DNA of 64,000 bases, taken from the NCBI GenBank assembly GCA_964187785.1, contig OZ076409.1, positions 25,732,001 through 25,796,000 on the forward strand, given 5' to 3'. A program made the position numbers and the translations under genes. Below the pieces are notes generated by a model. It saw only the letters and a program-made list of their open reading frames with translations. It was not told the DNA's origin and ran no database searches. Within the stretch, counting starts at the first letter, position 1; each line of letters opens with the position of its first letter. Source of the DNA: Amphiscolops sp. MND2022 (Eukaryota). This document shows, piece after piece, positions 7,261 to 60,137 of this stretch.

Positions 7261-9423
7261 GTAACAGCCAGAATCTTAATACACGGACAGAAAATCTTAC
7301 CGACCGTAGAATACAGCATTTTAATCAACCAACCATTCCATCCTTCAGCAATCGTCTGAACTAGTTAAGTTGATGGCAAAAGATTGCTTTCTGAAACGAA
7401 AAGTACTTCTCTATTGATCATAGTGCTCTATAACAAAATTGGGATATTTTCTTTGAATCGCCCTCTCACTAATTCAATTTCCCCAGTTGAGCGTTCAAGT
7501 GAATTTATTGTTTCATTAATAGTAACAAACAATCAGATTTCTGTATCATTAAAATCTAATTGCAACTGAAACTCATCATTCATATTGAGGTAAATCTATA
7601 TTTTCCGCGCTTACTGTGGGGGAATTAACAGACAATATCCTAAAATTGTACCATGTCTGAGTCAGACACAATTTTTATGAATAATTGACAAAAAATTTGG
7701 AAATTAGGTATCAATTTGTGAAAATTGAGTGAGTATCGGATTGTGCCAGATATCATTACTCTTCCTTCTTTTACAATTGTTAAAAAGATGACTTTGATGC
7801 AAAAGCGAAATGGCATTTTGTCCATATTCTCTTTGTTGATGATGCAGCTATGGTTGACATACTAAGTTCTGAATTTAAGGACATAATTTTGTTACAAACT
7901 TTAATGAAGATGACCGGCATTGGTTGCAGTTATTTGAAAACTGAACTTGTCGTCTTCAGAAAACAATCCCTGAATCATTTGAACTTAGTATTTAGATTTC
8001 ATAAAAATTCCTTTTGTGAGAGCTACAATTATTTGAGGTTGCTTTTTGAGATAAAAACTCAAAAGTTTGAGATACACATCATACATGGTCACTGAAGGAA
8101 CTTGAAGCTCATCCTAGCACCAATGTTAATTAGCGCCAAAAAATGCAGTTATCAATGAAAAAACTCCAACCTTCTAATAGTCCTTAGTCCTTGGCATAGC
8201 CTTTATACCAAAACGACTGTCAAAAGTGCATGATCAGATTACGATGAAGTATTATCTTTGATTTGTCAAACTTTCTTGAAATATTTCCTCAAAGATTTTC
8301 ACATGTTTATTGCTTGCTGCTTGGTGACAGAAAGCCGTATGGTTGAAAATTGGAAAATCATTAAAATGTGATATCAATATTCCTGTGGTAATTTCAACAT
8401 ACGATATGTCTGTCTATACATTTTGTAAAATCAGTAGTGTTTAATCAATCAATCTCCAGGAATAGCCAAAATCATATGGGTGGAATGTGAACAAGATTTC
8501 AATGGCAATCCCAGCCAACAAAATCTAAATCCAGGCATTACTAACTGATTGAAATGGATTGGCGTTATTGAAATAAAAGGGCAGTAGGAGGACAGTAAAT
8601 ATGAATGGTGGATAAATTTAGTAATCAAGGAAGAATGCAACGTGAAATCATCAAAAACTGATTCCGAAAAATACTTTTTACTGCTGTATTTTGAATTTTG
8701 TCCAAAAATTTTAGTATCTTTTTGTAGCTTCTTTGAAAACAAATTCGAATTTGACGTGAAGAAAACACCAAAACTATATCTTTACTATGATAACAGTGGT
8801 GACTGAACGATTCTGCGAGGAAGCTTTTGAAATAAGAAATAAGAAAAAAGCTAAATTAGGTATGATTCATAAAAGACATAAAAATGGTAACTAATGTGCT
8901 TCAAACTCATCCAAAAACAGATGGCTCTCGTTGCACAAAGAAGTCCGCACTTGAATGGTGAAAAATAGAACAGAATTCTCAGAACACCATCTGCAAAACT
9001 ATCCGGTCATTGTACTATTAAGAGTGATGAAAAATGTTCTTAAAACCGAAAATATCTAATTATGAAAGAGAAGACTAATCAGTTTGAGAAAACAAATTTA
9101 ACGTTCTCATTCAACTGATTATCGTTTCGTCAGAAAAAATTGACAGACTTTTTGGTTTATCCCTTCATTTTCTACTAAATGGTTTCGATGTATACTACAG
9201 CATATATGCCACAACAGTGTCAAACTTCACTGGGAAACATAAGAAAAGACTCTAAATTTGCTAGGAAGCCAGCCTAGTCGGCCATGGGAAATATTGTGTA
9301 CTAGTAGATTGTGAGCTATTGTGAGCTCAGACACTTTGATGCGCCGAACAAAAATGACAAAACTGTGACGTAATTGCAGTATCAGCTTCCATGATATTCA
9401 GAAAGAAGTATTCTGGATCATAC

Positions 9424-11347
9424 TGTAGAAAATTTAGAATTCGAGGGCGGAGAGATTTTCCCAAGAATCTAACTCTATCAGAAAAAGGATTTTTGGTGAG
9501 TAAGTTCGGTTATTTCTATCGCGTTCTCACTTATCCAAAGTCTCTCCAGTGCTCAAGTTTTTCGGCCCAAGTCAATCTATCACGAAAAGAGATGTTCAAT
9601 AATCCAATTAACTTCTAATAACGATAATCAAATCGTCTCGTCAAGAATATCAAATCAAGTTAACAAATTGGCTAAAGCTTAGGTCCACGATTCAGTCAAC
9701 TAATTCGATGCGCAAAACACAAGTCCCGGACTTGTTCAAGTTCAATCGCTAGAGCTAACGACAAACCAGTTCTTTTAGCGAAGCCAAGTTTCTTGCCCCC
9801 GTCTCGAGGCTCGACTTGCTTGTAGCTCTCTAACTCGGTTGTGTCTTCAAGTATATTCCAAATCCGCCTCAATTATATTTGTTCATCGCCCGCATTTTAG
9901 TTGTACCGATGTCGCTCTTTTATTTGCATGCTTTTAACTTCATGTTGTTTCATTCCTTTTATGGCATGGCAGCGCCCTAGTTATACTTCGACTAAACATT
10001 CTTCGCCGCCAACGACAAATACTTCAACAAAGGTTGTACAAAGTTCACATTTCAATAATAATTCAAGTCACCCAAGATATTTCTAATATCGAGCCAATCG
10101 TTCAATGACCTTCAATTACATGGTTTACATGCTCTATACGCGTAAGGGGTACTTTTCCGTCCTTTCGGGCGCAATGCATCGCGAATCGTTCTGCCTGGCT
10201 GAATTGCATAACTTATCACTTAACGACGCTGATTTACATGTTTTATCATAAGTTTCTCTATATGTTCATGGGTTGCATCCAGAATGACCTTGAGGTCCAT
10301 CGGTGACCTTGAAGTTAGTCGTCCTCATCCAATGTTGCTACATGCCAGGTTATATCATCCTAGGGTCAATGGTCTTCGAGTTCCATGATATGTGTATCGT
10401 TTGTTTACTTAAGGAGGTTACCCCCGCATGGGTTACAAATACGTTTCCATTCTTGTTAGTAATCGACTACATTCATCGTTCCGGTTCGTTTGAGGTATTA
10501 CGAGCCAAGGTCAAATGTCTTTTATCGGTCGGGCCCGCGCGTCCGGTCCCGCGTGCCTTAAACAAACATTATTCCGCGCGTGGTGGACCGATCAATGTAT
10601 CTTTCATGTATATTACTTAGGGTTACTAGGTGAACATCTTGGGTAAGTTTCATGATCTTCGGGTCATCCGGTGGCTATTTACATAACATTCGAGGTTTAT
10701 TTACTGAGGGTCCGTACTCCTCCTACACGCGTCATTGGGTTCCAAAAATATGCGCAAACAACCTCTTATCCTATGGGCTATTGATTCCATGTATTACATG
10801 ACTTATTCCGTGCTTGGCCGATGAGTTCGTGGGGGGGGTCGACCTAGGTCACTTCCGGTGCTAATAGCCCGGGGCTGGGGGGCTTCGTCTCGGTTCTGTT
10901 TTTATGGACGAGTAGCACAACACCTCAGGTATACGTGTGCCAAATTTCAGGTCTCTACGATTAATAGTCTTTGAGAGAAACCGTTTGGGGGGGGAGTTTA
11001 AAGATTTGCAATGTGACGATTTCCAGTGTTGTATCTTAGGATAATTTCGCTCAAAAGTGGGACTTAGTGAAATTCGCTCTCAGAGATCAACTCTGACTTA
11101 GACAATTCGATCAATTACATCGACGACGTCACTCACTAGCTCGTTAATTTTGCCTGAGAAGTTTCGTTTACGAAGTAAACCTAGTTTGCCAATTAAGTCC
11201 TATCAAAGCATGCTTTTGTCAGTCTGTTCAGCAGTTTTCACTATTCCGGCGGTCCAAAAATGTAATTAACATAGTTCTGCCTATCGTATGTACTTCGTAC
11301 AAAAGCCATGAGAATTTTTGTGCACGCCAAAAACTAAAATTTCCACA
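9424..11347 (-). repeat. 3' LTR of element A (1924 bp)
   Basis: Direct repeat of 24118-26035 with roughly 25 differences by eye (~1.3%). Confidence 0.95.
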
Positions 11348-11359
11348 CTCTTCCCTTCT
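11348..11359 (-). promoter_or_regulatory. Polypurine tract of element A
   Basis: Minus strand AGAAGGGAAGAG directly abuts the TG of the 3' LTR. Confidence 0.85.
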
Positions 11360-11703
11360 GGACTTTTATTCTCCCGAATAAACTTAACGGTATTATCGTT
11401 GGCTGAATCGTGTGATCTAGGTTAAACATACACGTTTTGATAAGTGGTTGGGGCATGGGTCAGGACATTCCGAAATGAAGTCGATAGCACCGACCATGAA
11501 TAGTATATACATTGAACGAAAGCAAAAATAACAACACTAGAATGAAACGATAGAAGAAATCATTTAGTTTACCTATGTCACTCTAAAAACCTACAATGGA
11601 CTATGCGACTATGCAAGAGGGTGGGAGATATACACTAATGAACTTAAGTTCAATTTTTGATTGAATAAAGAGCATGAGTATTAAAAAAACTTTTGGGAGT
11701 GAG

Positions 11704-11997
11704 TTAATCTCGCGCTTTTCTGGAATTAGCCATGAACATGATTAATTCGCCAACTTGCAACCGATGATCAGGGTGGAGGTTTCCCGCGAAGGAGAAGATT
11801 TCTCTTAGGGTTGCAAGCAGGCTTGTCCACATCCGCGTTCCCGGTTGGACTTCTACGTTCCTTCTCCGGGGCCTGTCGGAGCAATGGATCCTAGTGATCA
11901 TGGGCGCATCCCCGAAGTCAAAAAAAATCCTCTCTAACAATACCACCTCTTGGAAATCCTGGCAGTCCCAATTCCAATACAATCCAAAATAAGCCAT
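11704..11997 (-). CDS. Orphan accessory ORF (97 aa), sense to element A
   Basis: ATG in gtcATGG context; more GC-rich than its flanks; globular-looking composition; no recognised homology. Confidence 0.45.
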   Translation of the reverse strand: MAYFGLYWNWDCQDFQEVVLLERIFFDFGDAPMITRIHCSDRPRRRNVEVQPGTRMWTSLLATLREIFSFAGNLHPDHRLQVGELIMFMANSRKARD

Positions 11998-12416
11998 GAC
12001 CGTAAGAAAAAATCAGTCTGTAATAGTAATGACCAAACTCACACTTTACTTTCTACCGCAACAAGAAAGATTCTTAAATTCAAATTTTTCGTACTGCGAT
12101 GTTTCATTTGGAGGGCTGCTTCGAGAGCTGTTTAGAGATCAAACAATTGTTTCCTGTAATCTTATTACTTTCAGCAACATTCGGTTACGGGCTTTTATGA
12201 TTCCATACTTGCCTGTTATGTTATTCACGTCTTAAAGTTCGTCAAGAATCAAAGATTACATGAGGTGGATTTCTCGCTGTCGAATGTTTTGTTTAGTTAG
12301 CAAATTTACTCTTCACCAACAGCTTTCGCCAACTCGACGTTTCGGAACTACAAAATTCTACTTTACATCTTTCAAAGTTTTACGTCTCTTACAAAATTTC
12401 GTGATAATTGAGAACC

Positions 12417-12713
12417 ATGGTGCACGAGAATATCCTAATACGACTGCGATGGGCGTCGCTCTACTATCGAAGGGCTTTCTCTACTCAGAGCCTGAGTGTG
12501 GACGGTGGTTACGATGTCAAAATGGTATTGGAGGATGGCGAGCAGTTTTTACTAGAATATCTGTCGCCTGGTTGGGTCGAATTTGCCCTGTTCCTGCTGA
12601 ATATCCCGATCCCAGGGGAAAACGTCGAGGGTCAGACATTTCGGCTCCGATTGGCCCGACGAACGTTGCACAGAATTTTTAAGAAAACGACCCTTCCAGA
12701 CTTCTTATCTTGA
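12417..12713 (+). CDS. Orphan accessory ORF (98 aa), antisense to element A
   Basis: ATG in accATGG context; more GC-rich than its flanks; no recognised homology. Confidence 0.45.
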   Translation: MVHENILIRLRWASLYYRRAFSTQSLSVDGGYDVKMVLEDGEQFLLEYLSPGWVEFALFLLNIPIPGENVEGQTFRLRLARRTLHRIFKKTTLPDFLS

Positions 12714-13233
12714 ATTCATTTGTACAAAAACTATCATTTTCACTCTAATTTCATCTTTCATCGCTTCATCCCTATTAACCTACTAAAATAATTTATTGCA
12801 TCTTTTCTTTTTGGCAATGCGTAAAGGACGAGTTCTACCGATCCTAATTTACTTGTTCGAGGATAAGTTTGGATTGGTTGGGGTTATTTGTTGCACCTAA
12901 CAAAACAACAAGGAGTGTAGCACTAGGGTAGGGGTTGCGAGATAGGGGTGTGGGTATGTTCATAGGCGCTTTCATAAATGTAATCTGTTAGGGTCAGGGT
13001 TGGGTCGGAAAATTTAAAGAAAAAGAAACTAAAAACAAGAAACGGGTTTTTCGAAGTTCGGCCTCGAGTCCAAGCAAGGTTACTCTTGAAAACATTGAAG
13101 CAGTCTCATCATCTTGCATAACTTAGCTTCGGCGAACTTCAATCTGCCCGACAGCAAGAAATATACTGATTTAACAAATAAATTTAAAAGGAAAATGTTA
13201 GTGTTTCCTAATCAGTTTTGTCAAATTTAATAC

Positions 13234-14535
13234 TCAAGTGTTCGGTGGATGGAGTTTCACGTACATCGCCGCGTCGTCTGGTGGGCACGCTTTGCCGTCA
13301 GCTCGCTTTCCGCTTTTCCACTTCACTCTCTTCCACTGACTGCGCCAGCGACGTGCCCCATCTGATCTCAGTTGCAGCTGCGGCGGTTGTCCCATCTGTT
13401 GGACAGCATTCCATCTGCCATGCTTTCGGTGGGTCGGCCAACTCCGTCGTTGCAATCCCATTTGCTGACCTTCCGTTCTGCGCCTACAATGCTTCCTGTG
13501 GGGTACCCAGAATCGCCTTCTTTGGGTGAGAGCTGGGCGTTGGGGGATAGTTTCATCAAGGGTGTGGCAGCAATGTCGCTCCAGACTGCCTTTCGCTTCA
13601 GTACTTGGGAAGAAGCACTTCTCTTCTGCTTCGATGTCCGTCTCTGATCTGCCGGTTGCCTTGGTGACATCACAGACACTTTCAGTCAACATCTTGTGAA
13701 CACCATTGCCATGTACAAGGACTCCTTCCCATTCAAGAAGCTCAGACTATCCACCTCTATCTTGGTCTGCGTTTTCCACATCCAATTCTTCTAATAGAGC
13801 GTCGATGATTGTTTCGTCTTCGTCGGACAGTTTATGGGATTCATCAAGCTCTTCCATTTCTTTCAAAATCTCATCGAGCATTGCATGGTCAACGTCTTTC
13901 ACAGCGGAAGTTGCTGGATTCCAACGCTCCTCCATCAGTCTCTGGTGTTGATGTTCGACGACCAACACTTCTGTCAACTGCCCCTGTTCCCAGTTTATAT
14001 TTTCAACAACGGTCTCTCGACTCCGAACAAGCACTTCAAAGTCGTTCGTCAATGGAGAACACGTCATCACGGCTGTGTGAGGCGCACGCTTCCCTTCTGC
14101 ATCGAATCCCACAGCTGAGTCCTTGGGTTTTGCCAAAACTCGATCATCACTTGCATTTGCAGAAGTCGCCGCCTCGCAAAAGCAATTGTCCGGGAGCAAT
14201 ACAGCTTCCAATTCACGCTCGAAATCATGACTTCGTGTCGTCGTTATCGCCTCTCGCACCGTGCAGAATTGATCCACCTGCGACGCAAGTGTACCAGGTT
14301 GTCGAGCTAAGCCGTTTCTCGGACACAGTTTTTCACGGGCCACTCCTAATCTTTCCACGTGCATCTGTTCGTCTCGATACTGGTCACTGGCACCTCCGTG
14401 GCGTACTGCTTTTACAGCTAATCTCCCTGCTGCAGCTTTCACAATTGCCTTTGCCTGTTGTTGCGATAGGGTTTCTGTTGGTGCGGCCGGGAGAATTAAC
14501 TCCTGCGGTGGTCCCCCGGCCCTCACTAGTTTAAA
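13234..14535 (-). pseudogene. -1 frame ORF2 of element A (non-pol, ~430 codons, one internal TAG at 13747-13749)
   Basis: ORFs 13747..14595 and 13234..13692 are in the same frame, separated by one TAG; acidic helical middle, Arg/Trp-rich C-terminus; no D[ST]G, YxDD or integrase motif. Confidence 0.6.
14485..14535 (-). promoter_or_regulatory. -1 programmed ribosomal frameshift signal
   Basis: Minus strand U UUA AAC (14535-14529) in gag frame just before TAG, a 7-nt spacer, then stem GGCCGGGGGA / TCTCCCGGCC with a 17-nt loop. Confidence 0.75.
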
Positions 14536-15387
14536 TGACTGCGTCTTCGTGGGCATTTCCCTGCAATGTGTCCATCTACCCCTCACACATAACATCGAAC
14601 TGGCTTTTTCGATTGGGAGGCACCAATAAACTGCACTGGGGTCACCGTTTTGACAAATTGGGTCATCATATCTCTCAGACTGTTCATTTCATCAGTCAAT
14701 CTTTTCAGTTGCTGTTTCATCTTGTTCATCTCCGAGATGCTGTTCATTGTACCCGCCTCTTGAGTCATCCTGATTGCATCTACGCGCTTGTTGGGTCGGC
14801 TGTGTAGAGATTCGGCAATATTTTTTAAGGCAACCGCTCTATCAACTGTCTCCCTGAAGGTCCTGTTGTCTTCTCTTAGTAATACTTCGAGCAGCTCCGG
14901 ATTAGACAAACCTTCAACGAAACGCTCACGAAACAGTTCATCTCGTTGTTCAGCATCCACGTTGGCGTACACTAACATGGCGGTATTCCGCACTCTGCGC
15001 GCAAAGTCCCTGAGGCTCTCATTCCCTTTCTGCGCCACTGCTTCAAACTCACTTCTCCCCCTTCGGTCGTTTCGCAGCACACCCAAGGCTCTGTCCAAAT
15101 TTTCAAAGAGTGCCTGCAACGTGGGGACTGGTTCTCCGTTGACATGCTGTTTCAGCTCGGCCGGTGCAGCATGAAACTCATCTAGCGCATTCCCACTGAT
15201 ACAAACTGGAAGTGCATTAATAAATTGTATTTGGGTCCACCGGTTAGTCTCTGCCACTGCAACGAAGTGTAGTTTCCATTGGACCCAGTTTGGAAAGGCT
15301 TCAGAGGGGAATCGATCTGGTTTGAGGGCTCCATTGCTGAACATACGGTTCTGCTGATCGTTCAGCACCCTTCCAACGGCCTGCATG
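14526..15387 (-). pseudogene. gag: Gag of element A (main part), Ty3/Gypsy-type capsid plus CCHC knuckle
   Basis: QKGNESLRDFARRV...RERFVEGL retrotransposon-gag motif; knuckle C-Y-V-*-G-V-D-G-H-I-A-G-K-C with the second Cys as TGA (14583-14585); N-terminus at 23994-24031. Confidence 0.85.
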
Positions 15388-15392
15388 GCCAC

Positions 15393-16345
15393 TGTAGGCG
15401 CCAGTCAATTGCGAGATCAGAAACTCAAATTCGAACGTGACTGATGAAACTTACAACTCAAAACACTTAGAAACTTTGTCAAGATTTTAGTTGGAAATTT
15501 TACAAGTTTCACCAGAAATATGGCGTCACCAAAAAGGGCCACCCCCCCGTCCCGATAAACCACTCATTCAATCACCTTCAAACTTGGCACACGTATAGTA
15601 GTGGTGCTATCCTAACTTTTCACTAGAAACAACCAACCCCGTATCCCCCCTGGGTTCCGAGCTATTAACACCCAAAGTGACCTAGGTCGGACCCCATGAA
15701 TTACCCAATTTTGATATATTAATTATTATGTGATTTTCCTATATGACCTTGAAGGAAATTCATCTCTGTTGAAATTACTGATATTTACATTGTGTAAACA
15801 TACTTTCTAACCCACCTGACCAACATGCCAAAACCACCACATAGTTTGTTTACTTAGCCAATAACTTCATTTTATGCTTTAAATGTCATTTTATTTATAC
15901 CACATATTTCAACTGATATTTGCTTATATTTACTGTAGAACTGTAAACCATATGTATACCATTGTTAGATAGAGATTTTTTCCACTGAATAGCTATAGTC
16001 AAGTTGGGTCTTAGGACCAAGAGACTAATTAATCAACTTCTCAATCTTCACAACTTTTCGCTAGAGTCAGAGCGACTAAGTAGCTACTCTCATAGTTGGA
16101 GAGCCGGAGCGCGTGAAGATACCGTGAGGGAAGTGTGTTACGGATCACATCGGATCCAAATCAGTGCAAAGAGGAATCGCAGGAGATTCCACGGGTCACA
16201 TCGGACCCACCAGTCTAAAGATACAGTCCTTTAAAACAAGAAAACCAGGATTTGTTTAGTGACGGTCCACAGCACTAAGCAACGGATCAGGGCGGCGTAA
16301 AGCTTGTCAAGCCTCAGCGCAGGATAAAGGCAAGCAGCCGTTACA
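15393..16345 (+). repeat. 5' LTR of element B
   Basis: Direct repeat of 23041-23993, about 11 substitutions by eye. Confidence 0.95.
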
Positions 16346-16347
16346 TT

Positions 16348-16364
16348 TGGTCCGCCGACCCGGA
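16348..16364 (+). promoter_or_regulatory. Primer binding site of element B (tRNA-Tyr-like)
   Basis: TGGTCCGCCGACCCGGA, 2 nt after the LTR; resembles the TGGTCCTTCGAGCCGGA tRNA-Tyr PBS common in BEL/Pao. The tRNA identity is inferred. Confidence 0.75.
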
Positions 16365-16463
16365 CAACTCTTTGGTGGACGACCCGGACTAGAAGAAGAC
16401 GACTCGTTGGTGGACAACTGAGAAGATTGCCCAAGAAGAACAAGTGTCTGGATCTTGGAGTCT

Positions 16464-16663
16464 CTACTGTGTCTCTGGGAGATTGGGCTACTGTGTCTCT
16501 GGGAGATTGGGCTATTGTGTCTCTGGGAGATTGGGCTATTGTGTCTCTGGGAGCTTGGGCTATTGTGTCTCTGGGAGATTGGGCTATTGTGTCTCTGGGA
16601 GATTGGGCTTTTGTGTCTCTTGGATATTGGGCTATTGTGTCTCTGGGAGATTGGGCTATTGTG
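16464..16663 (+). repeat. 24-bp minisatellite, ~8 copies, in the leader of element B
   Basis: Unit CTATTGTGTCTCTGGGAGATTGGG. Confidence 0.95.
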
Positions 16664-16697
16664 ACTTTGGAACTAAACTCAATCGACAAGAGAAGAG

Positions 16698-19600
16698 ATG
16701 GCAGAACCAAAACGGTTCGATATCAACAAAATCGAAAACTTTCTGAAGAACTCTGCTGACAAAGCCCAAACGTTGAGTTATTGGAATGCAGCTGTCGAAC
16801 ACGGTAAGACTGTTAAAGAAATTGATGAGAACCTAACTAGCAATGTTGACGACAAGAAGATAGCAGATTTACTGCTAAGACGAACAGATTCCATGAACAG
16901 GAGGGATCGGCTCATTAAGGCAGTCGAAAATGCGATCAAAGTCAAGTATCAACCGCAGATACCCGAAATCTTCTCAACAGTGAACAAAGAAATGCAGAGC
17001 CGATTGGCTGAGTTGCAGCAGCAAAGCTCTAGCATTGGAAGGGTACAAATGCTGATGTCAGCATTGCAAGACGAAAATCAGATACTAAATTACTTGGATC
17101 TTGACGAAAAGAAACGTGCTATTGATAGACTAATGGATAGCAACAAAAAGTTGCGGGAAGATTCAATCGCAAATGGCAAAGTTGTCGACGAAGAAGATTA
17201 TGCTGCAGCATGTCAAGAATTGCTGCAGAAACGGTCTGACATTAAAACGAAGATTGAAGATCTGCTGAAGACAGGAGAAGGAGGAGCCATTTTGCGAAGT
17301 CTTGAAGACGCTGAACAAAGACTAGCAGACGCTCGGGTAAACTCAGCAGCAGACAAATCCAGTAAAAATGGTACCTCACCACAAAAGGAACCACAATCAG
17401 ACAATGAGCAAAAAAGACATGATGATGGCCATAACGCAGATGACAGACAAGAGCCAAGAAATGGAGCTAGTTCATTGCCAATAGACGAATTGAGCATACA
17501 TTCGCGAAGTAAAAGAACCAAAAGCAACAAAACGTCTGTGATTTCAAAAACATCTAGTGCACGACGATTTCTCGATTTGGAGCTGAAATCTTTGAAAGAG
17601 CAAGAAGAACTTCAAACCCGCCTAGAGAAACTGAGACGTGAAGCAAACGAAGTTAAGATAGCTAGCTTGCAAGATGAGATGGTTAGCTTGCAAGAGGAGA
17701 TGGCCCGCAAAGCCAAAATTGCTGAAAAGGAACTACAAATGGCGCAAGTGTCGAGTGGTGATGGGTCTAGCTTCCGAAGTATCTCACCAGTCGGGACTCC
17801 AGATGACAATCTGACGAAAGTCTCAGGATGGATGGACAAGACAGAAGAAGCTGAAAACGTGGCATCGCAGATTAACGTGCTATCTGTATACCAGCAAACG
17901 TCCATCTCAGCACCAGTGATTTCAGTACGATCAAGTCATGGAGGACAAGGCTCCGCGCAAGTGAGGGATTTGAAGTCCTCATTGAAACCAGTCATGTCCA
18001 CAGAGACCGCTGTGCGAGATATTGGAAAGGACAGAACAAAGACTGTCATAGATGTTGGCAGTCAAAGAGCAACAGAACAACCAGAAGTGAAATTCGCCTC
18101 ATCGAAGCCGTCGATGACTCTCGGTGCAGACCTGAATCGGTTACCGCCTACGTTTGGAGGCATTCCGAGTAGTGCATTTCAAGTACCACAGCTTGAGAAC
18201 ACACAGAAGCAGTATATGCCAAGTCAAGGGCCAAACATAGTGTCAAATGCGAGAGATGACTACTACATCAGATCTAGCTTGCCAAAACTGAAGCTGGCAG
18301 AGTTTTCCGGTGACCCATTGGAGTGGCCAGAGTGGTCACAACTCTTTCAAGCAACCGTCCACGCAGCCAATATGGATGACAGTGTAAAGATGAATCACCT
18401 GAAAACCATGGTCACAGGCAAAGCCAAGGAGGCGATTGCTGGCCTTGGGTACACTGCTGAGATGTACAATGTGGCGTGGAACGTTCTAGTTCGAAACTTT
18501 GGAAAACCCCAAATGGTTGTGAACGCCCAGTTGAAGCGAATCTATTCCTTTCCCCCTATGAAACCTTATGATGGAGCTGCATTGATTAAGTTTGCGAGTA
18601 TAGTGTCGAGTTGTGTGAACGTTCTGACACAATTCAACTACGTGGGAGACCTAAACTCAGAAGGAGTTTTAGGCAGTGCCACAAGGAAGTTAACATTGGA
18701 CATGAAAACGAAGTGGCTCACTTATGTGAAGCAAATGAACCTGTATCAACCCGGACTCTCCGTGTTCAGTGAATGGCTCAATGATATAGCAGATGTTCAA
18801 GACGAATTGCTCTTGTCTTCAAACCCGAATGCTGATCGCGCGAAGTCGAACTACAAGGAAAAGACCAAAGGCTCCACGTTTGCCACATCAACAACAAACA
18901 CAGCCAGTGACAACTCGAAATACCAGCGACAGTGTGCGCTGAAAGATGGCAAACATCCCATATGGAAATGTGAGAAGTTCAAGAAGATGAACGTCGAAGA
19001 AAGAGGACAAAAGGCGAAAGAGTTGAAATTGTGCTTCAAATGTTTGTCAGACGCGCATCAGATGAGAAATTGCTCTGGTAGACTCTGCGACGTAAGTGGT
19101 TGCGGAAAACCTCATCACAGATTGCTTGACAGACCATACAAGAACGTGGAACAAAAGCAAAATGTTGAAAATGTCGAAGAGGTCTCCAATTTGTCATCAA
19201 TGAAAAGCAGTGGAGTGCTTCCAGTAATTCCAGTAACGATAGGGAGTGAGAGCAAAGCTCTGAAAACGTTCGCTTTGTGCGACTCTGGAGCAAGCCTGTC
19301 CTTTGTGGACGAGAGCCTTATGAAAACGCTAAATCTGACGGGACAGCCAGTGGATTTGAATGTTGCAGGGATTCATGGAACGTCAGATATTAGTAGCAAA
19401 CGACTTCGAGTCAGGATTGGAGATCAGGACGGAAAAGTCAAAGAAGATATCATGGCATATAGTCATCCCAACGTGAATGCAGGAAATCGAACTTACAACC
19501 TCAAGAAATTAAAAGAGACATATCCTCACCTGTCAGTATTGAGGGAGTCTACCATCAACTTGGGAGAAGTGAATGTCATCTTGGGCCAAGATTGCTACCA

Positions 19601-21605
19601 CTTGCATAGAGCAATCGACTATAGAAAGTGTGGAAACGCAAAGCCCTGGGCAGTGCGAACGAAGCTGGGATGGATGCTCAGTGGACCCTTGCCTCAGCAA
19701 GAGACTGCGAAGCTTGCTACTGAAAGCTTAGTCGCTGCAGAAGTGGACCCATTAGCGGATCAAGTGAAAACTTGGTGGAGCATGGAATCGTATGCTTCCA
19801 ACTGCAGCGCATCCGGAAGGTCCAAAGAGGATGACAAAGCCCTCGAAATGCTCAAGGCAACCACAAAGTTCGATGGAGAGAGGTATGAGGTCGGGCTACT
19901 TTGGAAAAATGCAAAGCCGTATTTGCCGAACAACTACAGTTCAGCAGTAAGTCAATTGAAGTCTCTCGAGCGCCGACTGGAAAAGGATGAGAGCTTGAAA
20001 CAACGCTACAAAGAGACAATTGACGTGGATGTACAAAAGGGGTTTGTGAGAGTTCTGGACGAAGCAGAGCTTGAAAACACTAATTCAGACCTTCAGTGGT
20101 ATGTTCCGCATCTCCCTGTGCTGAACCCGAACAAGCCGGATAAAGTGAGACGAGTGTGCAACGCTGCCTCAAAGTTCGGAGGTGTGTCGCTGAATGATAA
20201 CTTGATGGCCGGTCCAGACCTCCTACAATCGCTGATAGGAATTATCTTCAGATTCAGGGAAAAGGAAATCGCCCTGACAGCAGACGTCGAAGCAATGTTT
20301 CTCCAAGTGAAAGTACCCCCTACTGATTGCAGAGTACTGAGATTTTTGTGGAGAGAAAACCACACTGACCCTATCTCTGTGTATGAATATGGAAGACACA
20401 TTTTTGGAGCTAAGAGTTCGCCAACATGTGTCAACTACGTTTTGCAACAAGTCGGACGAGACAGCAGAGATGACAATGGGATGGTTGCAAAGTTGATCAA
20501 CAGAAACTTCTATATGGACGATTTTGTGAAGTCAGTAGCTTCGAGGGAAGAAGCTGTGGAAGTGTATAATGGCTTGCGAAAATCCTTAGCGGATCGTGGC
20601 TTTCAACTAACGAAATGGATCTGCAACTCAGAGAAAGTAATGGAAGAAATTCCTTCTGAAGATAGATCAGACACGCTAAGTAAAACATTCGAAGCTGAAC
20701 CCTTGGCACCCTCTATCTTGGGACTCCAGTGGAATGTGGAGTCAGACAGTCTTGAGATTTGCCGCGGTACGGGAAAAGAGGTGCCTGTCAAGATCACTCA
20801 GAGAATTGTTCTATCTCACGTATCCCCTGTGTTTGACCCGTTGGGATTGTTTTCCCCCTTCACAGTGAGAATGAGATTGTTGCTCAAAGGAATATGGAAG
20901 AAGCATGGGCAATCGTGGGACGAACAAGTTTCTCCAGAAGACGAGATTGCTTTCAAGGATTGGGCATCGGAGTTGAGTCAAATGAATGAAATGGCTATCA
21001 AAAGAAAATATCTATCGAAAAATGCTGAAGTAGTGGACTTGCATATTTTTGCCGATGCATCCCTGGAAGCCATGTGCATAGTTGATAACTTTCGAGATCA
21101 ACAAACTGGAGAGCTTGCCTATGTGGTAGGGAAATGCCGAGTAGCGCCAATGAAGCAACAATCAATTCCCCGACTAGAGCTACAAGCAGCTATGTATGGA
21201 ACCCGATTAAAACAACTGATCGTAGACGAACACGACATTCAAGTTGAACGAACTTTCTTTTGGACGGATTTGACAACCGTTTTGCAATGGTTGCATGGAG
21301 CTGACAAGAAACAACCGGTGTTTGTAGCGAATAGAGTCGCTGAAATCCTTGACAGTTCAACTATTGATCAGTGGAGACATGTCGAAGGAACCTTAAACCC
21401 TGCCGACATTGGAACAAGAGGAAAATCCGTCCACGAATTAGAAAAGAGCGAGTGGTTCACAGGGCCGGCATGGCTTCAAGAAAAGGAAGATGCTTGGCCA
21501 CAAACTTCACCACAGTTGTTTCAGCGGAAAACAGAGGACATAGAGCAAGTCTTTGAAGTTGTGTCAGAAGAAAAGAACATTGATTCGGTTCGTTCAGACA
21601 AATGA
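16698..21605 (+). CDS. BEL/Pao Gag-Pol polyprotein (gag, Cys/His knuckles, aspartic protease, RT, RNase H)
   Basis: 1635 aa; FSGDPLEWPEW gag region, CFKCLSDAHQMRNC and CGKPHHRLL knuckles, ALCDSGAS protease, NFYMDDF RT, LHIFADAS...IPRLELQAA...NPADIGTRG RNase H. Confidence 0.95.
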   Translation: MAEPKRFDINKIENFLKNSADKAQTLSYWNAAVEHGKTVKEIDENLTSNVDDKKIADLLLRRTDSMNRRDRLIKAVENAIKVKYQPQIPEIFSTVNKEMQSRLAELQQQSSSIGRVQMLMSALQDENQILNYLDLDEKKRAIDRLMDSNKKLREDSIANGKVVDEEDYAAACQELLQKRSDIKTKIEDLLKTGEGGAILRSLEDAEQRLADARVNSAADKSSKNGTSPQKEPQSDNEQKRHDDGHNADDRQEPRNGASSLPIDELSIHSRSKRTKSNKTSVISKTSSARRFLDLELKSLKEQEELQTRLEKLRREANEVKIASLQDEMVSLQEEMARKAKIAEKELQMAQVSSGDGSSFRSISPVGTPDDNLTKVSGWMDKTEEAENVASQINVLSVYQQTSISAPVISVRSSHGGQGSAQVRDLKSSLKPVMSTETAVRDIGKDRTKTVIDVGSQRATEQPEVKFASSKPSMTLGADLNRLPPTFGGIPSSAFQVPQLENTQKQYMPSQGPNIVSNARDDYYIRSSLPKLKLAEFSGDPLEWPEWSQLFQATVHAANMDDSVKMNHLKTMVTGKAKEAIAGLGYTAEMYNVAWNVLVRNFGKPQMVVNAQLKRIYSFPPMKPYDGAALIKFASIVSSCVNVLTQFNYVGDLNSEGVLGSATRKLTLDMKTKWLTYVKQMNLYQPGLSVFSEWLNDIADVQDELLLSSNPNADRAKSNYKEKTKGSTFATSTTNTASDNSKYQRQCALKDGKHPIWKCEKFKKMNVEERGQKAKELKLCFKCLSDAHQMRNCSGRLCDVSGCGKPHHRLLDRPYKNVEQKQNVENVEEVSNLSSMKSSGVLPVIPVTIGSESKALKTFALCDSGASLSFVDESLMKTLNLTGQPVDLNVAGIHGTSDISSKRLRVRIGDQDGKVKEDIMAYSHPNVNAGNRTYNLKKLKETYPHLSVLRESTINLGEVNVILGQDCYHLHRAIDYRKCGNAKPWAVRTKLGWMLSGPLPQQETAKLATESLVAAEVDPLADQVKTWWSMESYASNCSASGRSKEDDKALEMLKATTKFDGERYEVGLLWKNAKPYLPNNYSSAVSQLKSLERRLEKDESLKQRYKETIDVDVQKGFVRVLDEAELENTNSDLQWYVPHLPVLNPNKPDKVRRVCNAASKFGGVSLNDNLMAGPDLLQSLIGIIFRFREKEIALTADVEAMFLQVKVPPTDCRVLRFLWRENHTDPISVYEYGRHIFGAKSSPTCVNYVLQQVGRDSRDDNGMVAKLINRNFYMDDFVKSVASREEAVEVYNGLRKSLADRGFQLTKWICNSEKVMEEIPSEDRSDTLSKTFEAEPLAPSILGLQWNVESDSLEICRGTGKEVPVKITQRIVLSHVSPVFDPLGLFSPFTVRMRLLLKGIWKKHGQSWDEQVSPEDEIAFKDWASELSQMNEMAIKRKYLSKNAEVVDLHIFADASLEAMCIVDNFRDQQTGELAYVVGKCRVAPMKQQSIPRLELQAAMYGTRLKQLIVDEHDIQVERTFFWTDLTTVLQWLHGADKKQPVFVANRVAEILDSSTIDQWRHVEGTLNPADIGTRGKSVHELEKSEWFTGPAWLQEKEDAWPQTSPQLFQRKTEDIEQVFEVVSEEKNIDSVRSDK

Positions 21606-23092
21606 CGCAAATCTTCGCCTATTGCCTTCGGTTCAAATCAAAAATCAAAGGAAAGGTGGTGATAACAGAAGAATTGCAACAAGTGATCCGACTGTTACTG
21701 AGGAAGAGCCAGATTGAAAGTTTTGGTCCAACTTATCAAGTATTGGCAGCAGGTAAACCCATGGCTGCATCTGATCACTTGAACAAACTGTCACCATTTA
21801 TGGACAATCAGCTAATGCGATTAAAAGGACGACTGCGTCATGCTGATGCGAGTTATGAAATGAAACATCCTATTTTGCTATATGCGAAGCATCCAATAGT
21901 GAGGAAATTGATTGAAGATGCGCATGAAAATAACTATCACGAAGGAACAGAGTATGTTCGCAGCATTTTGCAGCAAAATTATTGGATAATTGGACTCCGA
22001 AACGCGCTTAGAAATGTGAAGCTGAAGTGTGTTAAGTGTAGAAAGCAACAAGTCGGAGGAGTTCAACCTTTCATGGCAGACCTACCTAAAGAAAGATTGG
22101 AAGAAAGAGTTTTCCCATTTGCCAACACTGGAGTAGATTATTTTGGACCATTCGAAGTGAGATTCATGAGGAAATCAATGAAACGATGGTGTTGTCTATT
22201 CACATGTTTGACAACAAGAGCTGTGCATGTTGAAGTTGTGCCCAGCCTGGAAGCCAACGCATGTCTTGCTGCAATTACGAGATTCATCGCAAGAAGAGGA
22301 AAACCGAATATCATTCTAAGTGATAATGGAACAAATTTTGTGGGTGCAGCGAGAGAAATGCGAGAATGGATAGAAGCTTGGAATCAATCAGACATTGAGC
22401 AGTCTTTGGCTCAAAAGCAAATAAAATGGAAGTTCAACCCCCCAGGAGCTCCTCATTTTGGAGGTGTTTGGGAGCGAATGGTCAGAAGCTGCAAGAAAAC
22501 TATGATGACAATTGTAGGAAACAGAACACTGACAGATGATGTATTATCCACAACAATGTGTCTAGTCGAGCAAATATTGAATTCGAGACCTCTGACTAGT
22601 GTCAGTGATGATCCTGAAGATTTGGAAGCCTTGACCCCAAATCACTTCCTGCTAGGACGTGCAAGTCCAGCAACCCCATTTATTCCTGACGCTCAGCGAT
22701 ATACCGATCTGAGAGAAGTATTCAGAGTATCACAAGCATACACAGACATGATTTGGAGCAGATGGAATAGAGAATATTTACCACAATGGAATGAGAGATC
22801 TAAATGGAATAAAGAAGAAGTTAGACAACTGGAAGTCAATGATTTGGTTTGGATAGTGGATGAGAATCTAAAAAGAGCACACTACAAGATGGGTAGAGTG
22901 TTGGAAGTCTACCATGGAAGCGATGGGCGAGTGAGATCAGCGCTGGTGAAAACAGAAGATGGAAAACTCAAAAGACCAGTAGTGAAACTGGCACCCATGT
23001 TCTACGAAAGTGTTTTTCGGGAGAAAAACAGGGCTGGCAATGTAGGCGCCAGTCAATTGCGAGATCAGAAACTCAAATTCGAACGTGACTGA
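21584..23092 (+). CDS. BEL/Pao integrase, out of frame with the upstream pol
   Basis: H..H..CVKC zinc domain, GVDYFGP, SDNGTNF, GGVWERMV; frame opens FGSFRQMTQIFAYCLRF; ends 52 nt inside the 3' LTR. Confidence 0.9.
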   Translation, partial: FGSFRQMTQIFAYCLRFKSKIKGKVVITEELQQVIRLLLRKSQIESFGPTYQVLAAGKPMAASDHLNKLSPFMDNQLMRLKGRLRHADASYEMKHPILLYAKHPIVRKLIEDAHENNYHEGTEYVRSILQQNYWIIGLRNALRNVKLKCVKCRKQQVGGVQPFMADLPKERLEERVFPFANTGVDYFGPFEVRFMRKSMKRWCCLFTCLTTRAVHVEVVPSLEANACLAAITRFIARRGKPNIILSDNGTNFVGAAREMREWIEAWNQSDIEQSLAQKQIKWKFNPPGAPHFGGVWERMVRSCKKTMMTIVGNRTLTDDVLSTTMCLVEQILNSRPLTSVSDDPEDLEALTPNHFLLGRASPATPFIPDAQRYTDLREVFRVSQAYTDMIWSRWNREYLPQWNERSKWNKEEVRQLEVNDLVWIVDENLKRAHYKMGRVLEVYHGSDGRVRSALVKTEDGKLKRPVVKLAPMFYESVFREKNRAGNVGASQLRDQKLKFERD

Positions 23093-23993
23093 TGAAACTT
23101 ACAACTCAAAACACTTAGAAACTTTGTCAAGATTTTAGTTGGAAAATTTACAAGTTTCACCAGAAATATTGCGTCACCAAAAAGGGCCACCCCCCCGTCT
23201 CGATAAACCACTCATTCAATCACTTTCAAACTTGGCACACGTATAGTAGTGGTGCTATCCTAACTTTTCACTGGAAACAACGAACCCCGTATCTCCCCTG
23301 GGTTCCGAGCTATTAACACCCAAAGTGACCTAGGTCGGACCCCATGAATTACCCAATTTTGATGTATCAATTATTATGTGATTTTCCAATATGACCTTGA
23401 AGGAAATTCATCTCTGTTGAAATTACTGATATTTACATTGTGTAAACATACTTTCTAACCCACCTGACCAACATGCCAAAACCACCACATAGTTTGTTTA
23501 CTTAGCCAATAACTTCATTTTATGCTTTAAATGTCATTTTATTTATACCACATATTTCAACTGATATTTGCTTATATTTACTGTAGAACTGTAAACCATA
23601 TGTATACCATTGTTAGATAGAAATTTTTTCCACTGAATAGCTATAGTCAAGTTGGGTCTTAGGACCAAGAGACTAATTAATCAACTTCTCAATCTTCACA
23701 ACTTTTCGCTAGAGTCAGAGCGACTAAGTAGCTACTCTCATAGTTGGAGAGCCGGAGCGCGTGAAGATACCGTGAGGGAAGTGTGTTACGGATCACATCG
23801 GATCCAAATCAGTGCAAAGAGGAATCGCAGGAGATTCCACGGGTCACATCGGACCCACCAGTCTAAAGATACAGTCCTTTAAAACAAGAAAACCAGGATT
23901 TGTTTAGTGACGGTCCACAGCACTAAGCAACGGATCAGGGCGGCGTAAAGCTTGTCAAGCCTCAGCGCAGGATAAAGGCAAGCAGCCGTTACA
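23041..23993 (+). repeat. 3' LTR of element B
   Basis: TGTAGGCGCC...GCCGTTACA, 953 bp. Confidence 0.95.
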
Positions 23994-24099: not shown

Positions 24100-24116
24100 C
24101 CCAACCAGGAGCGCCA
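24100..24116 (-). promoter_or_regulatory. Primer binding site of element A
   Basis: Minus strand TGGCGCTCCTGGTTGGG, 1 nt after the 5' LTR; complementary to a tRNA 3' end ...GGAGCG-CCA (tRNA-Asn-like, inferred). Confidence 0.75.
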
Positions 24117-24117
24117 C

Positions 24118-26035
24118 TGTAGAAAATTTAGAATTCGAGGGCGGAGAGATTTTCCCAAGACTCTAACTCTATCAGAAAAAGGATTTTTGGTGAGTAAGTT
24201 CGGTTATTTCTGTCGCGTTCTCACTTATCCAAGGTCTCTTCAGTGCTCAAGTTTTTCGGCTCAAGTCAATCTATCACGAAAAGAGATGTTCAATAATCCA
24301 ATTAACTTCTAATAACGATAATCAAATCGTCTCGTCAAGAAAATCAAATCAAGTTAACAAATTGGCTAAGGCTTAGGTCCACGATTCAGTCAACTAATTC
24401 GATGCGCAAAACACAAGTCCCGGACTTGTTCAAGTTCAATCGTTAGAGCTAACGACAAACCAGTTCTTTTAGCGAAGCCAAGTTTCTTGCCCCCGTCTCG
24501 AGGCTCGACTTGCTTGTAGCTCTCTAACTCGGTTGTGTCTTCAAGTATATTCCAAATCCGCCTCAATTATATTTGTTCATCGCTCGCATTTTAGTTGTAC
24601 CGATGTCGCTCTTTTATTTGCATGCTTTTAACTTCATGTAGTTTCATTCCTTTTATGGCATGGCAGCGCCCTAGTTATACTTCGACTAAACATTCTTCGC
24701 CGCCAACGACAAATACTTCAACAAAGGTTGTACAAAGTTCACATTTCAATAATAATTCAAGTCACCCAAGATATTTCTAATATCGAGCCAATCGTTCAAT
24801 GACCTTCAATTACATGGTTTACATGCTCTATACGCGTAAGGGGTACTTTTCCGTCCTTTCGGGCGCAATGCATCGCGAATCGTTCTGCCTGGCTGAATTG
24901 CATAACTTATCACTTAACGACGCTGATTTACATGTTTTATCATAAGTTTCTCTATATGTTCATGGGTTGCATCCAGAATGACCTTGAGGTCCATCGGTGA
25001 CCTTGAAGTTAGTCGTCCTCATCCAATGTTGCTACATGCCAGGTTATATCATCCTAGGGTCAATGGTCTTCGAGTTCCAATATATGCGTATCGTTTGTTT
25101 ACTTAAGGAGGTTACCCCCGCATGGGTTACAAATACGTTTCCATTCTTGTTAGTAATCGACTACATTCATCGTTCCGGTTCGTTTGAGGCATTACGAGCC
25201 AAGGTCAAATGTCTTTTATCGGTCAGGCCCGCGCGTCCGGTCCCGCGTGCCTTAAACAAACATTATTCCGCGCGTGGTGGACCGATCAATGTATCTTTCA
25301 TGTATATTACTTAGGGTTACTAGGTGAACATCTTGGGTAAGTTTCATGATCTTCGGGTCATCCGGTGGCTATTTACATAACATTCGAGGTTTATTTACTG
25401 AGGATCCGTACTCCTCCTACACGCGTCATAGGGTTCCAAAAATATGCGCAAACGGCCTCTAATCCTATGGGCTATTGATTCCATGTATTACATGACTTAT
25501 TCCGTGCTTGGCCGATGAGTTCGTGGGGGGGTCGACCTAGGTCACTTCCGGTGCTAATAGCCCGGGGCTGGGGGGCTTCGGCTCGGTTCTGTTTTTATGG
25601 ACGAGTAGCACAACACCTCAGGTATACGTGTGCCAAATTTCAGGTCTCTACGATTAATAGTCTTTGAGAGAAACCGTTTGGGGTGGTTTAAAGATTTGCA
25701 ATGTGACGATTTCCAGTGTTGTATCTTAGGATAATTTCGCTCAAAAGTGGGACTTAGTGAAATTCGCTCTCAGAGATCAACTCTGACTTAGACAATTCGA
25801 TCAATTACATCGACGACGTTACTCACTAGCTCGTTAATTTTGCCTGAGAAGTTTCGTTTACGAAGTAAACCTAGTTTGCCAATTAAGTCCTATCAAAGCA
25901 TGCTTTTGTCAGTCTGTTCAGCAGTTTTCACTATTCCGGCGGTCCAAAAAGTAATTAACTAGTTCTGCCTATCGTATGTACTTCGTACAAAAGCCATGAG
26001 AATTTTTGTGCACGCCAAAAACTAAAATTTCCACA
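24118..26035 (-). repeat. 5' LTR of element A (1918 bp)
   Basis: Direct repeat of 9424-11347. Confidence 0.95.
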
Positions 26036-29000
26036 TGCTGTATGATTACAATTGCAAAAAAATGAAGCTGCTTCGCATTTTTTGTTCAATTTAAAGTTTG
26101 TTTGCTCAGCATTCAATTCGAATTCTATCATACATTGAAATTATGTAGTTCTTATTTAGTGAAGTTTTTAGCATTAAATATTGAAGCTGAAGAATTTTTG
26201 AAAGAAACAATTTCGAATCCACAAACCTGATTGGTCAACTAAAAAATGACAAGCCACTTCTGCAGAGAAAAATTGCAATAATATGTAACTTAAAAAAACA
26301 GCGTCTGACAACTTGAGTATCTTGCCAAGATCTCACAAGATGGTATCCAAATGGAATCTTAAATGTTAGAAAGTGATCCAAAGTCGGTAACCAAGTTTTT
26401 AAAAGCTACTAAACCTCTGAGATCTCGGCATTTTGGCAAACCATGTTTGTTTTATCCCTCAAAAGCGGCCGCGGGGAAATAGGAAGCAAAGTTCACAAAT
26501 TAATTAAATAATTGATGTCGAAATACCCTATCTTTTACATTGATTAACAGTTAAACTCTCCCCAGTTAATGTGTTATTTAAAACTTACGTTGAAATAGGG
26601 GTCTTTTCATACAATTTTAACTTGTTCCAGGCGTGAATTTTTGCTATTTTGGACAATAATATGGAAAAATTAGTGTCAAAACAGTTGCAGAGACAATCAT
26701 CTAAGTATTCACAACCATAAAACATTCTCTTATAAGTAAAATATTTTTCCTCAAAAATAAAATGCGCTTTTGTATTGGAGGGGATACCTGGGAAGTGTAC
26801 CTGGGGATAAAAGAAACATGGTCCTTTTTCCCATGACATGTATCAATGTTTCAATGACCGGTATACATTGTAAACTACCTGGATGATGATGAAAAAATAG
26901 AATATGAAAGAAGAAACGGCACAATGTTATCACCCAAGTGTTCATCATGATTTTCACGCACACGCGAGTGAGAAAGAAAACGGAAATTGAATTGAAGATG
27001 GATTATCAGCTATTTAAAGGTTTATTTGTTCTTGATAACTTCGGCTAAGCTACAAAAAATCAATATTTACAAAAGCAGAGAGCCAAAAAAAATGAGAAAT
27101 ACCTTTGCGGTGGCTGAGTAAAAATAATTTTAGATTTTGGGTGACTAGAACTTCTATTCGATGGAATTTAAGAACTTGGGATTTTCATAGCTATGTGCTC
27201 TGCGGAAACAAAATCGAGCATCTTGAATAACATCCAATGAAAAACAGCAATGAACCGATGAATATAGTTAGAACGGAATTTGTTATCTGGGTAAGAAATG
27301 ATTTTCCTATTTTCCTTTTTTTTTCGTTTCTCTTTTGGTTCTATGCGAAAACTGCCGTTGAAGAAAATCTATAATTCAACACAAAAACATGGCATGGATT
27401 GTACCAATTATCTGCTTCAAATTCGATTGAAGCGGGAAGAAGTATGTAGCGGAAAATAAATATGATTCGTGACGGTATATTCACCCTCAATTGGAACAAG
27501 AATTTTATCCAATTTGTGTTCAATCGTTCGGACGCACAATAATTCACGTCACCCCAATGATGAAAAACATTTTCCATGTGAACAAATAGTGACGTTTTTA
27601 TTAGTCGAATACTTTTCATAAGTATTCTTTTTTCCTTATAACCGGAAAATGCTAATAGAATGTTTAAAAAACACAAGGAGGAATTTTTACAATTATCCTC
27701 TTTTAAACGCTTCTGTTTTTGACAGGCAATAACTTATATCAAGAAATTTTCTCCTGTTGATGTGAAAAAAAATTAACCAAATGTTTTGGAAACTATATTT
27801 TTTGAAATAACGTTGTTGAAAGGCTTTTAAAAATTTAAATCTTCTCTTGAAAACGTGTCAATTGACAAGAACGCTAAAATTAGGAGGTACTCGGGAAATA
27901 CGTTTCAACAGATTGATGATAAATTTTTAATTTGTCTTTTTCTCTACAATCCTTTCCACTAAAATCTTTTACACTTATATATACCTTCATTGGGTCGCAG
28001 CACAAAAATTAATTTTTTGAAAAAATTTGACAGCAGCCATTTGCAAGAGTTTATAAGCATATGCATAACCAATTACTGTCGAAGGTATAGAAGGTGTATA
28101 TAGCAGGTAAAAAGCAGTAGATCTACTTGTACTGTGGAATTAATATAAAGAATAATAGAAGTAATAAAGTAAAAGTAAAAAGTATGTTTTATGTTAATTG
28201 ATAACTTGTAAGTTATCAGAAAATTGTAAACCTCTACAGCTGTGATTTAAATATACAGATCAAAGGAATTTGAGTACAATTGCTGGCTGGTATTATAACA
28301 TGACCCATCGAAAATTCATAATGTTTGTTTATGCAAAATGATTAACTCCCTTAGCCAGATTCTGCTTGCCAAGAATCTGTAGATCTACTTCAATGAATGC
28401 GTTTTCATTTAGCACTGAAATCTTACTGGTTGTTTAGAAGCTTCAAAGATCCGAAACACATGGCATGAAACTTTCCGTTGAATTGAATTTCGTCATTAGA
28501 AACGCTTTCATGTTTCGGAAAATTGTTTCACTTCAGAGCGACTTCTTTTGATTTATTTACCAAGAGCTGAATGTTTTGTCATTTCATAGATATTGAGGCA
28601 AGTTAGAAACAAAAAGGCTCCGGGATATTTGATACTAGGGACTAAAAAAGAATTTACTAAGAGAAATTTCTTTAGACGACCGTTTCATAAAACGGTTAAA
28701 CACAAATACGTAACATACAACATTGGCATAATATAACAGGGTTTGTCAATAAGAATCTAGTACGTCTGCAGTTTTATCTTCCGAAGCTCGGTAGCGTTCA
28801 TATTGCATCAGCATCCCCCTCTCTCCGGAATCTTCTACTTTCTTTTAAACTGCAAAGAATAGTCCGTACAATAGGTTCGATTTGGGTTGATAGGTTTTTA
28901 TCGTATTAATCTCGCGCAGCCGCCCCCTTACCGTATTTATACTGAGAAAACCGGTAAATTTCAGTTTGCTGCGTTCTACATGTTGTATTGTCTACCCAGT

Positions 29001-59717: not shown

Positions 59718-60137
59718 TTCATTTTCCTAGAAAATTTGCCGGAAGCTTTTTCAGGCAAAATTTTGAACCCAATAACGCAACAAATTGTAGAAAAAAGCAG
59801 ATAAAAGGCTACTTCCCATTGCAGAGATCAAATGTAATTGAAATATTTTCCAGCTTTTTGGAGACATTTAATTTATCAAGATTTTTTTTACTATATAGAG
59901 TTACTATTTTCAAAACGGTGTCTTAGTTTTTCTTGGAAGCTTCGTTTACGATTATTCAAAAATTGTCGCAATACCACTGAGCATATTATTAGTTTTCCAC
60001 AGTAAAAAATTGTTCCTGGGCATGTTAAAAACAATTATTAAACCATAAAAATTTTCCTTCTAGTGCTTCTTGGAAATTAGTTCTTGGAAACACTCCCGGG
60101 AGGCAATAAAGGGTTTTAAAATGAAGAAAAAACTTAC

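Follow-up and report, generated by a model that had tools for sequence, protein, structure and literature searches.

Non-autonomous LTR elements are usually regarded as passive leftovers. TR-GAG elements among them consist of LTRs, a primer-binding site (PBS), a polypurine tract (PPT) and gag (some with protease) and are without reverse transcriptase (RT) or integrase, and to our knowledge no accessory cassette is known from TR-GAG/LARD elements. Such gag-keeping elements have been described from plants (PMC6696364), and plant LTR elements with antisense ORFs near the 3' LTR are on record as well (PMC11963269, PMC7264820). The MDG1/412 group of gypsy elements in Drosophila carries two short accessory ORFs under selection, sORF1 and sORF2, the first of which is about 110 aa long, lies 5' of gag and stains in nuclei (10.1101/2025.03.14.642691). 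Varied third ORFs are common to different retroelement types in rotifers (PMC5408684), and macrodomain ORFs occur in fish ERVs (PMC4977317). In the accessible portion of a 2019 review, no transposon-encoded factor was known that acts against silencing by piRNAs or KRAB-ZFPs (PMC6719617). No report of a divergent, swappable pair of small genes in pol-less gypsy elements was found in the literature covered, which took in few subscription journals.

The window analysed here is a 64,000-nt stretch of DNA, and all coordinates are positions in the whole of it. It holds, on the minus strand, a pol-less Ty3/gypsy element with its own gag (element A) and, 3' of that gag, two small divergent genes. In the list of features below, "helper" refers to a related autonomous family, treated further on.

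9424..11347, minus strand: 3' LTR of element A, 1.92 kb, with TG...CA ends and 98.5% identity to the other LTR by self-BLAST
11348..11362, minus strand: polypurine tract, identical to that of the autonomous family
11704..11997, minus strand: ORF1, 97 aa, sense to element A
11998..12416, no strand: spacer of 419 bp between the start codons, zone of ORF1/ORF2 module recombination and putative two-way promoter
12260..12682, plus strand: overlapping ORF of 140 aa, probably a shadow frame of ORF2
12417..12713, plus strand: ORF2, 98 aa, antisense to element A
13234..14595, minus strand: post-gag frame, broken in the window copy, no domain
14583..15392, minus strand: gag of element A (PF03732, E 6e-4, below cut-off; 64% to helper Gag)
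15393..23993, plus strand: nested Bel/Pao element B (Peptidase_A17, DUF1759, RVT_1, rve), outside the cassette
24100..24117, minus strand: primer-binding site, matching that of the autonomous family
24118..26035, minus strand: 5' LTR of element A, the LTR pair being 98.5% identical

The family of element A has the features of a non-autonomous gypsy element (two LTRs, PBS, PPT and gag, with no RT or integrase), and in these it is like TR-GAG/LARD elements. With Retand-type plant elements it shares a conserved antisense ORF near the 3' LTR; some Retand elements are non-autonomous, and their gene23 has an upstream promoter of its own. However, Retand-type elements belong to a plant lineage and have longer ORFs, and neither a divergent sense partner nor cassette swapping is described in the accessible portions of the sources. 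A search for TRP28 (PF04195) gave matches in 0/16 ORF1 and 0/15 ORF2 members at E up to 1. In the MDG1 group, sORF1 and sORF2 are both sense, lie 5' of gag in autonomous elements and include a membrane fusogen (sORF2), whereas ORF1 and ORF2 are divergent, lie 3' of gag in pol-less elements and have no membrane segment. CERV of Cer1 in C. elegans is likewise a novel accessory protein of an animal gypsy-type element, but comes from a spliced sense mRNA of an autonomous element and is needed for RNA export, with no homology to ORF1 or ORF2 shown (PMC10309623). VANC of the Arabidopsis VANDAL elements counters host silencing, the function that we propose below for the cassette, but it belongs to plant DNA transposons, acts through tandem motifs and is not homologous (PMC6719617).

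The sequence-only reading had presented the pair as an accessory cassette of two intact ORFs, and in this it was borne out: ORF1 (11997-11704, minus strand) and ORF2 (12417-12713, plus strand) have the lengths given there, a 419-bp gap and zero internal stops, and in the window copy both have good start contexts, each start showing a -3 purine and a +4 G. Among the representatives of the subfamilies, the purine is present in 9/9 ORF2 and 4/11 ORF1, and the +4 G in 9/11 ORF1 and 3/9 ORF2. The interval 11348-13230 contains three ATG ORFs of at least 97 aa, where 500 base shuffles gave 0.08 on average. Selection was estimated as dN/dS (Nei-Gojobori) for pairs 60-93% identical in DNA (29/120 ORF1 pairs and 52/105 ORF2 pairs). 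Between subfamilies it was 0.08-0.23 for ORF1 (19 estimable pairs) and 0.09-0.61 for ORF2 (34 estimable pairs, the top values coming from the closest pairs), with the remaining pairs saturated at synonymous sites and the pairs not independent of one another. Shifted frames gave values mostly about 1 or above, and the antisense frame gave 0.10-0.80, as expected because it shares third positions; Fisher p was <1e-7 in 7/7 chosen pairs. ORF1 and ORF2 are genuine, selected genes: purifying selection acts on both between subfamilies, and random disruption of the ORFs is not what the other copies show. Many copies do have LTRs >92% identical, and ORFs arising by chance or left as relics could seem intact through copy youth, but the subfamilies differ to saturation at synonymous sites and yet agree in length, start, frame and motifs, which makes such an origin extremely improbable. 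The 140-aa ORF (12260-12682), considered as a third gene, was rejected; it is broken in L006/L007 and carries 3-6 stops in 3/7 diverged types, and its frame is without selection.

Searches of the same genome with single proteins returned ≥149, ≥150, ≥150 and ≥150 matches for the four queries, with scoring limited to the best 150 candidates. Twenty relatives, chosen to span match diversity, were read whole, each over a stretch of >10 kb. All 20 have two LTRs (overlap identity 92-100%), spaced 6.0-7.0 kb apart in 19, and 0/20 have an RT match; a Pfam search of the long ORFs of pol-less elements found neither RT nor integrase. Absence of pol is a trait of the family and not peculiar to element A. 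Some pol-less relatives encode gag alone and others gag-protease, and gag is under selection in the element A family (dN/dS 0.21). The domainless post-gag frame, 400-470 aa, is open in several subfamilies (L061, L062, L076, L078), with weak constraint in relatives (dN/dS 0.48-0.65); its start resembles the start of helper pol. In the window, element B has inserted at the start of element A gag, leaving the first gag codons beyond it. Because no matching target-site duplication flanks element A (9419-9423 versus 26036-26040), it may derive from recombination between two insertions.

Helper candidates were sought by a protease search of the same genome, which led to long frames about 30% alike, and 14 of these loci were taken. 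Twelve of the 14 belong to one autonomous family with gag and a pol in which the order is PR-RT-RH-INT; likeness to element A is 86-89% in the LTR core and 64% in Gag, and PBS and PPT match. In most loci of this family there is a third ORF, about 750 aa long, which opens with a signal-like sequence, has an RDRR site ahead of a hydrophobic run and carries a membrane segment at its C terminus (for example, L089:266-2503, minus strand, 745 aa). As the 745-aa ORF has no Pfam or PDB sequence match, we call it env-like on the strength of its layout. It lies between pol and the PPT, so that the "env position" earlier assigned to the small pair is accurate as a position, but element A is without pol too. 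Neither ORF1 nor ORF2 was found in the 12 helper-family loci, of which only three (L090, L096, L099) have DNA extending to the 3' LTR. One helper-family locus (L100) is adjoined by a pol-less element. The shared signals and young LTR pairs suggest that element A is likely mobilised by the enzymes of this related gag-pol-env-like family.

Both ORFs are open and divergent in 17/20 of the relatives read whole, the other three having ORF1 only, and the gap between start codons is 285-422 bp in aligned elements. The layout is thus retained while the proteins diverge as far as 20-35% identity; likeness among ORF1 types is 20-39%, and between the two ORF2 clades 31-37%. The ORF2 type of the window adjoins ORF1 types just 24% alike, one ORF1 type adjoins three ORF2 types, the same ORF1 lies next to ORF2 types about 37% alike, and in L008-L030 similarity switches at about 12120, within the spacer. 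ORF1, ORF2 and gag types reassort freely. A census covered 117 distinct loci, of which 77 came from best-match lists and 40 were chosen as ORF2 without a listed ORF1 ("broken" here includes partial profile coverage). Among the 77 best-match loci, both genes were intact in 54, ORF1 was intact with ORF2 broken in 5, ORF1 stood alone in 6, ORF2 was intact with ORF1 broken in 6, both were broken in 2, a broken ORF1 stood alone in 1 and neither gene was found in 3. The 40 chosen loci comprised 6 with both intact, 22 with ORF2 intact and ORF1 broken or partial, 10 with both broken and 2 below the ORF1 threshold, yet both of the latter hold ORF1 remnants; ORF1 or a remnant was present in 40/40, and no ORF2-only subfamily was seen. 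Two pol-less elements with neither gene (L105, L106) have LTRs 99% identical, and since these and the ORF1-only elements moved recently, neither gene is essential. Two loci (L128, L129) are tandem cassette arrays, with four ORF2 copies about 2.5 kb apart and ORF1 in the first unit only, or, in a second pattern, the pair present three times at a distance of 1.25 kb, its ORF1 broken.

These counts bear on an earlier suggestion that the genes form a toxin/antidote-like pair, or by extension an obligate heterodimer, favouring element-carrying cells or gametes. Such a role would agree with two small back-to-back genes and with the existence of ORF1-only but not ORF2-only subfamilies, but we consider it very improbable. 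Free reassortment and the ORF1-only subfamilies argue against it: pairing is non-cognate (an ORF2 type with ORF1 types 24% alike, an ORF1 type with three ORF2 types), intact ORF2 stands beside broken or partial ORF1 in 22/40 and 6/77 loci (trans rescue by other copies is possible), and distant families have ORF1-like genes but no ORF2.

ORF1 and ORF2 have no Pfam match and, with three profiles, no significant PDB sequence match. Their database relatives (22 for ORF1 and 56 for ORF2) are all nameless and from ENA assemblies, and the ESM Atlas gave a best value of 0.84 for ORF1 and nothing usable for ORF2. The AlphaFold2 model of ORF1 has four strands and two helices (pLDDT 80), and Foldseek matched it to nothing in PDB or BFVD at E 0.001; in a comparison with a PH-like fold the best VIA score, Z 5.2 (rmsd 3.2, 74 aligned), did not rise above background. 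For ORF2 the model is of low quality (pLDDT 56; best Z 5.0). Blank fold searches of this kind prove neither a new fold nor its absence, and from the missing sequence and fold matches we class ORF1 and ORF2 as two new small protein families. A likeness in layout between the two proteins, claimed at the outset, was not recovered: the family profiles are unalignable (hhalign probability 0.12%, E 0.48), with P-x-T-x-x-W conserved in ORF1, where the G is not kept, and P-G-W-V-E-F in ORF2. A prediction of the ORF1+ORF2 complex, run with alignments unused, scored 0.00, a value that counts neither for nor against an interaction. Both proteins are soluble and without a membrane segment, with a best 19-residue hydropathy of 0.84 and 1.23, respectively; the best window is ≤1.11 in 26 ORF1 and ≤1.73 in 33 ORF2 sequences, exceeding 1.6 in only 2. 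The signal peptide, membrane anchor and several hundred residues of a retroviral env are not found in either, and nor are the single membrane helix and basic tail of sORF2/FAST-like fusogens. Most members have a net charge near zero or acidic.

A deep HMMER search returned 24 matches, of which one, P0094, was distant and full-length (E 1.6e-4); P0081, P0091, P0092 and P0095 were spurious, being long repetitive proteins. In a JGI metagenome scan with P0083, none of 321 pattern matches was confirmed. Traced in the genome, P0094 led to a degenerate ORF1-like stretch directly upstream of a different gag, and then to short sense ORFs immediately 5' of gag in three autonomous gypsy families with an RT-RNase H that shows 44% or about 27% likeness to that of the helper. 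An alignment of 88 columns was obtained between the ORF1 profile and a six-member leader-ORF profile (hhalign 82%, E 1.1e-5), an ATG being absent from one of the six-member groups, and as a control the ORF2 profile gave E 0.16. Although these profiles are small and the alignment probability is moderate, ORF1 is probably homologous to the leader ORFs of the three distant families. In the ORF1 family tree, 9/18 inner branches are open and long branches meet, so that no donor can be named. No ORF2 relative was found in the leader-ORF families; the pol-less family is the only one in which ORF2 turned up. One autonomous gypsy family has four short sense ORFs in its 5' leader (L131:343-1803, plus strand, L123 and L124; partly L121, L122 and L125), namely a membrane-type ORF of about 83 aa with PPPRY, two CxxC proteins (122 and 139 aa) and the ORF1-like gene, for none of which a Pfam match was found. 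The membrane ORF recalls sORF2/FAST proteins by its type.

The ORF1-like leader genes agree with MDG1-group sORF1 in size, sense and place, a combination that element A's ORF1 does not show, and the leader of one of these families, like that of MDG1-group elements, encodes a short membrane ORF too. In fold, compared by description, the helix-turn-helix predicted for sORF1 differs from the strands and helices predicted for ORF1. These parallels raise the alternative that the cassette proteins are nuclear regulators like Rev/CERV or sORF1, acting on transcription, export or stability of the element's genomic RNA; CERV of Cer1 is required for gRNA export (PMC10309623), and the size and place of the leader genes match those of sORF1 (10.1101/2025.03.14.642691). 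We regard this as unlikely, since most members have a charge that is near zero or acidic, ORF type does not covary with any distant LTR block and elements without the genes still moved.

Because ORF2 is antisense, the LTR transcript cannot supply it, and a promoter besides the sense one of the 5' LTR is required. A two-way promoter in the spacer (11998-12416), as had been supposed from the head-to-head layout, is plausible, and the divergent arrangement kept in 17/20 whole elements counts toward it. In 11 spacers, RYAAAYA, which we take to be a forkhead-like motif, has 26 occurrences where dinucleotide shuffles gave 7.5 (maximum 17 of 1000), though these spacers share modules; the window's own spacer has 0 strict matches. 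No DNA match of the spacer to the helper or leader-ORF families was found (8 loci). A conserved poly(A) signal after ORF2 was considered and rejected, AATAAA falling within 450 nt in 6/9 at varying positions.

The explanation that we tentatively place first, with a confidence somewhat short of even, is that element A is a pol-less element moved with borrowed helper enzymes and that both genes, expressed from a two-way promoter, independently counter host silencing or restriction. Enzymes of the related gag-pol-env-like family would mobilise the element, the spacer promoter would transcribe both ORF1 and ORF2, and the two proteins would act separately on host factors that silence or restrict it, anti-silencing being the leading guess for the role of the cassette. 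For ORF1, a host target is likelier than a viral one because the gene is at the service of elements with an RT-RNase H just 27-44% like that of the helper; ORF2, confined to the pol-less family, could act on the helper instead. Deep allelic divergence, cassette swapping and macrodomain cargo fit a host conflict. As to the last, a pol-less sister lineage encodes a Gag-protease-macrodomain fusion of about 830 aa (L065:5158-7653, plus strand; also in L063, L066, L067, L070, L071, L073 and L104-L108), whose macrodomain matches human TARG1/OARD1 with E 2e-28, and the same macrodomain, 44-51% alike, lies in the pol region of autonomous elements (L121, L122, L124, L125). The ADP-ribose macrodomain is a domain type deployed by viruses against host defence. 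No tie to a silencing pathway emerged for either protein from Pfam, PDB or fold matches. A diffusible anti-silencing protein would benefit all copies, so that selection lineage by lineage needs a cis or sequence preference, and none was found; LTR blocks cluster with the adjacent module only (helper LTRs were extracted in part).

The confinement of ORF2 to pol-less elements and the absence of both genes from the helper invite another reading, in which binding of helper Gag, Pol or RNA by one or both proteins biases packaging or the use of enzymes in the satellite's favour. Phage satellites offer the analogy, as their small genes divert helper packaging, and the selected gag that element A's family keeps (dN/dS 0.21) would put it in competition for helper enzymes. 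We think such hijacking improbable, given that autonomous families whose Gag and RT are very different also carry ORF1-like genes and that ORF types are untied to gag types.

Countering host defence, the reading placed first above, can be taken a step further, to a proposal that is doubtful though worth stating: element A would be an animal retrotransposon resembling a phage satellite, which dropped pol and env, kept the capsid gene and gained an interchangeable counter-defence slot (ORF1 or a TARG1-like macrodomain, from other gypsy lineages) along with a satellite-only ORF2, and ORF1 would represent a new family of proteins with which retroelements suppress the silencing of transposons in animals. 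The family of element A has hundreds of matches, copies that are young and two proteins under selection that the helper lacks, which suggests that here a parasite of a parasite bears its own gene cargo. Two small soluble proteins with many natural alleles would be direct candidates for factors against piRNA-based or KRAB-ZFP silencing, and one of them, ORF1, is probably common to distant gypsy lineages.

Some further features of the window were noted. A 92-aa ORF lies antisense within the LTR (10342-10620 and 25036-25314, plus strand) and is open in helper LTRs too. The gypsy LTR of element A (10399-10943) and the LTR of element B (15444-15856) have a common 29-nt motif (90%, E 9e-5) and further exact matches of 14 nt and 13 nt in the same stretches, which are possibly common promoter sites or one captured repeat. 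The leader of element B has a 24-bp tandem repeat at 16440-16700, and in the intervals 33600-43100 and 56142-62100 a 3.29-kb unit is present in three tandem copies and a repeat of about 185 bp forms two arrays.
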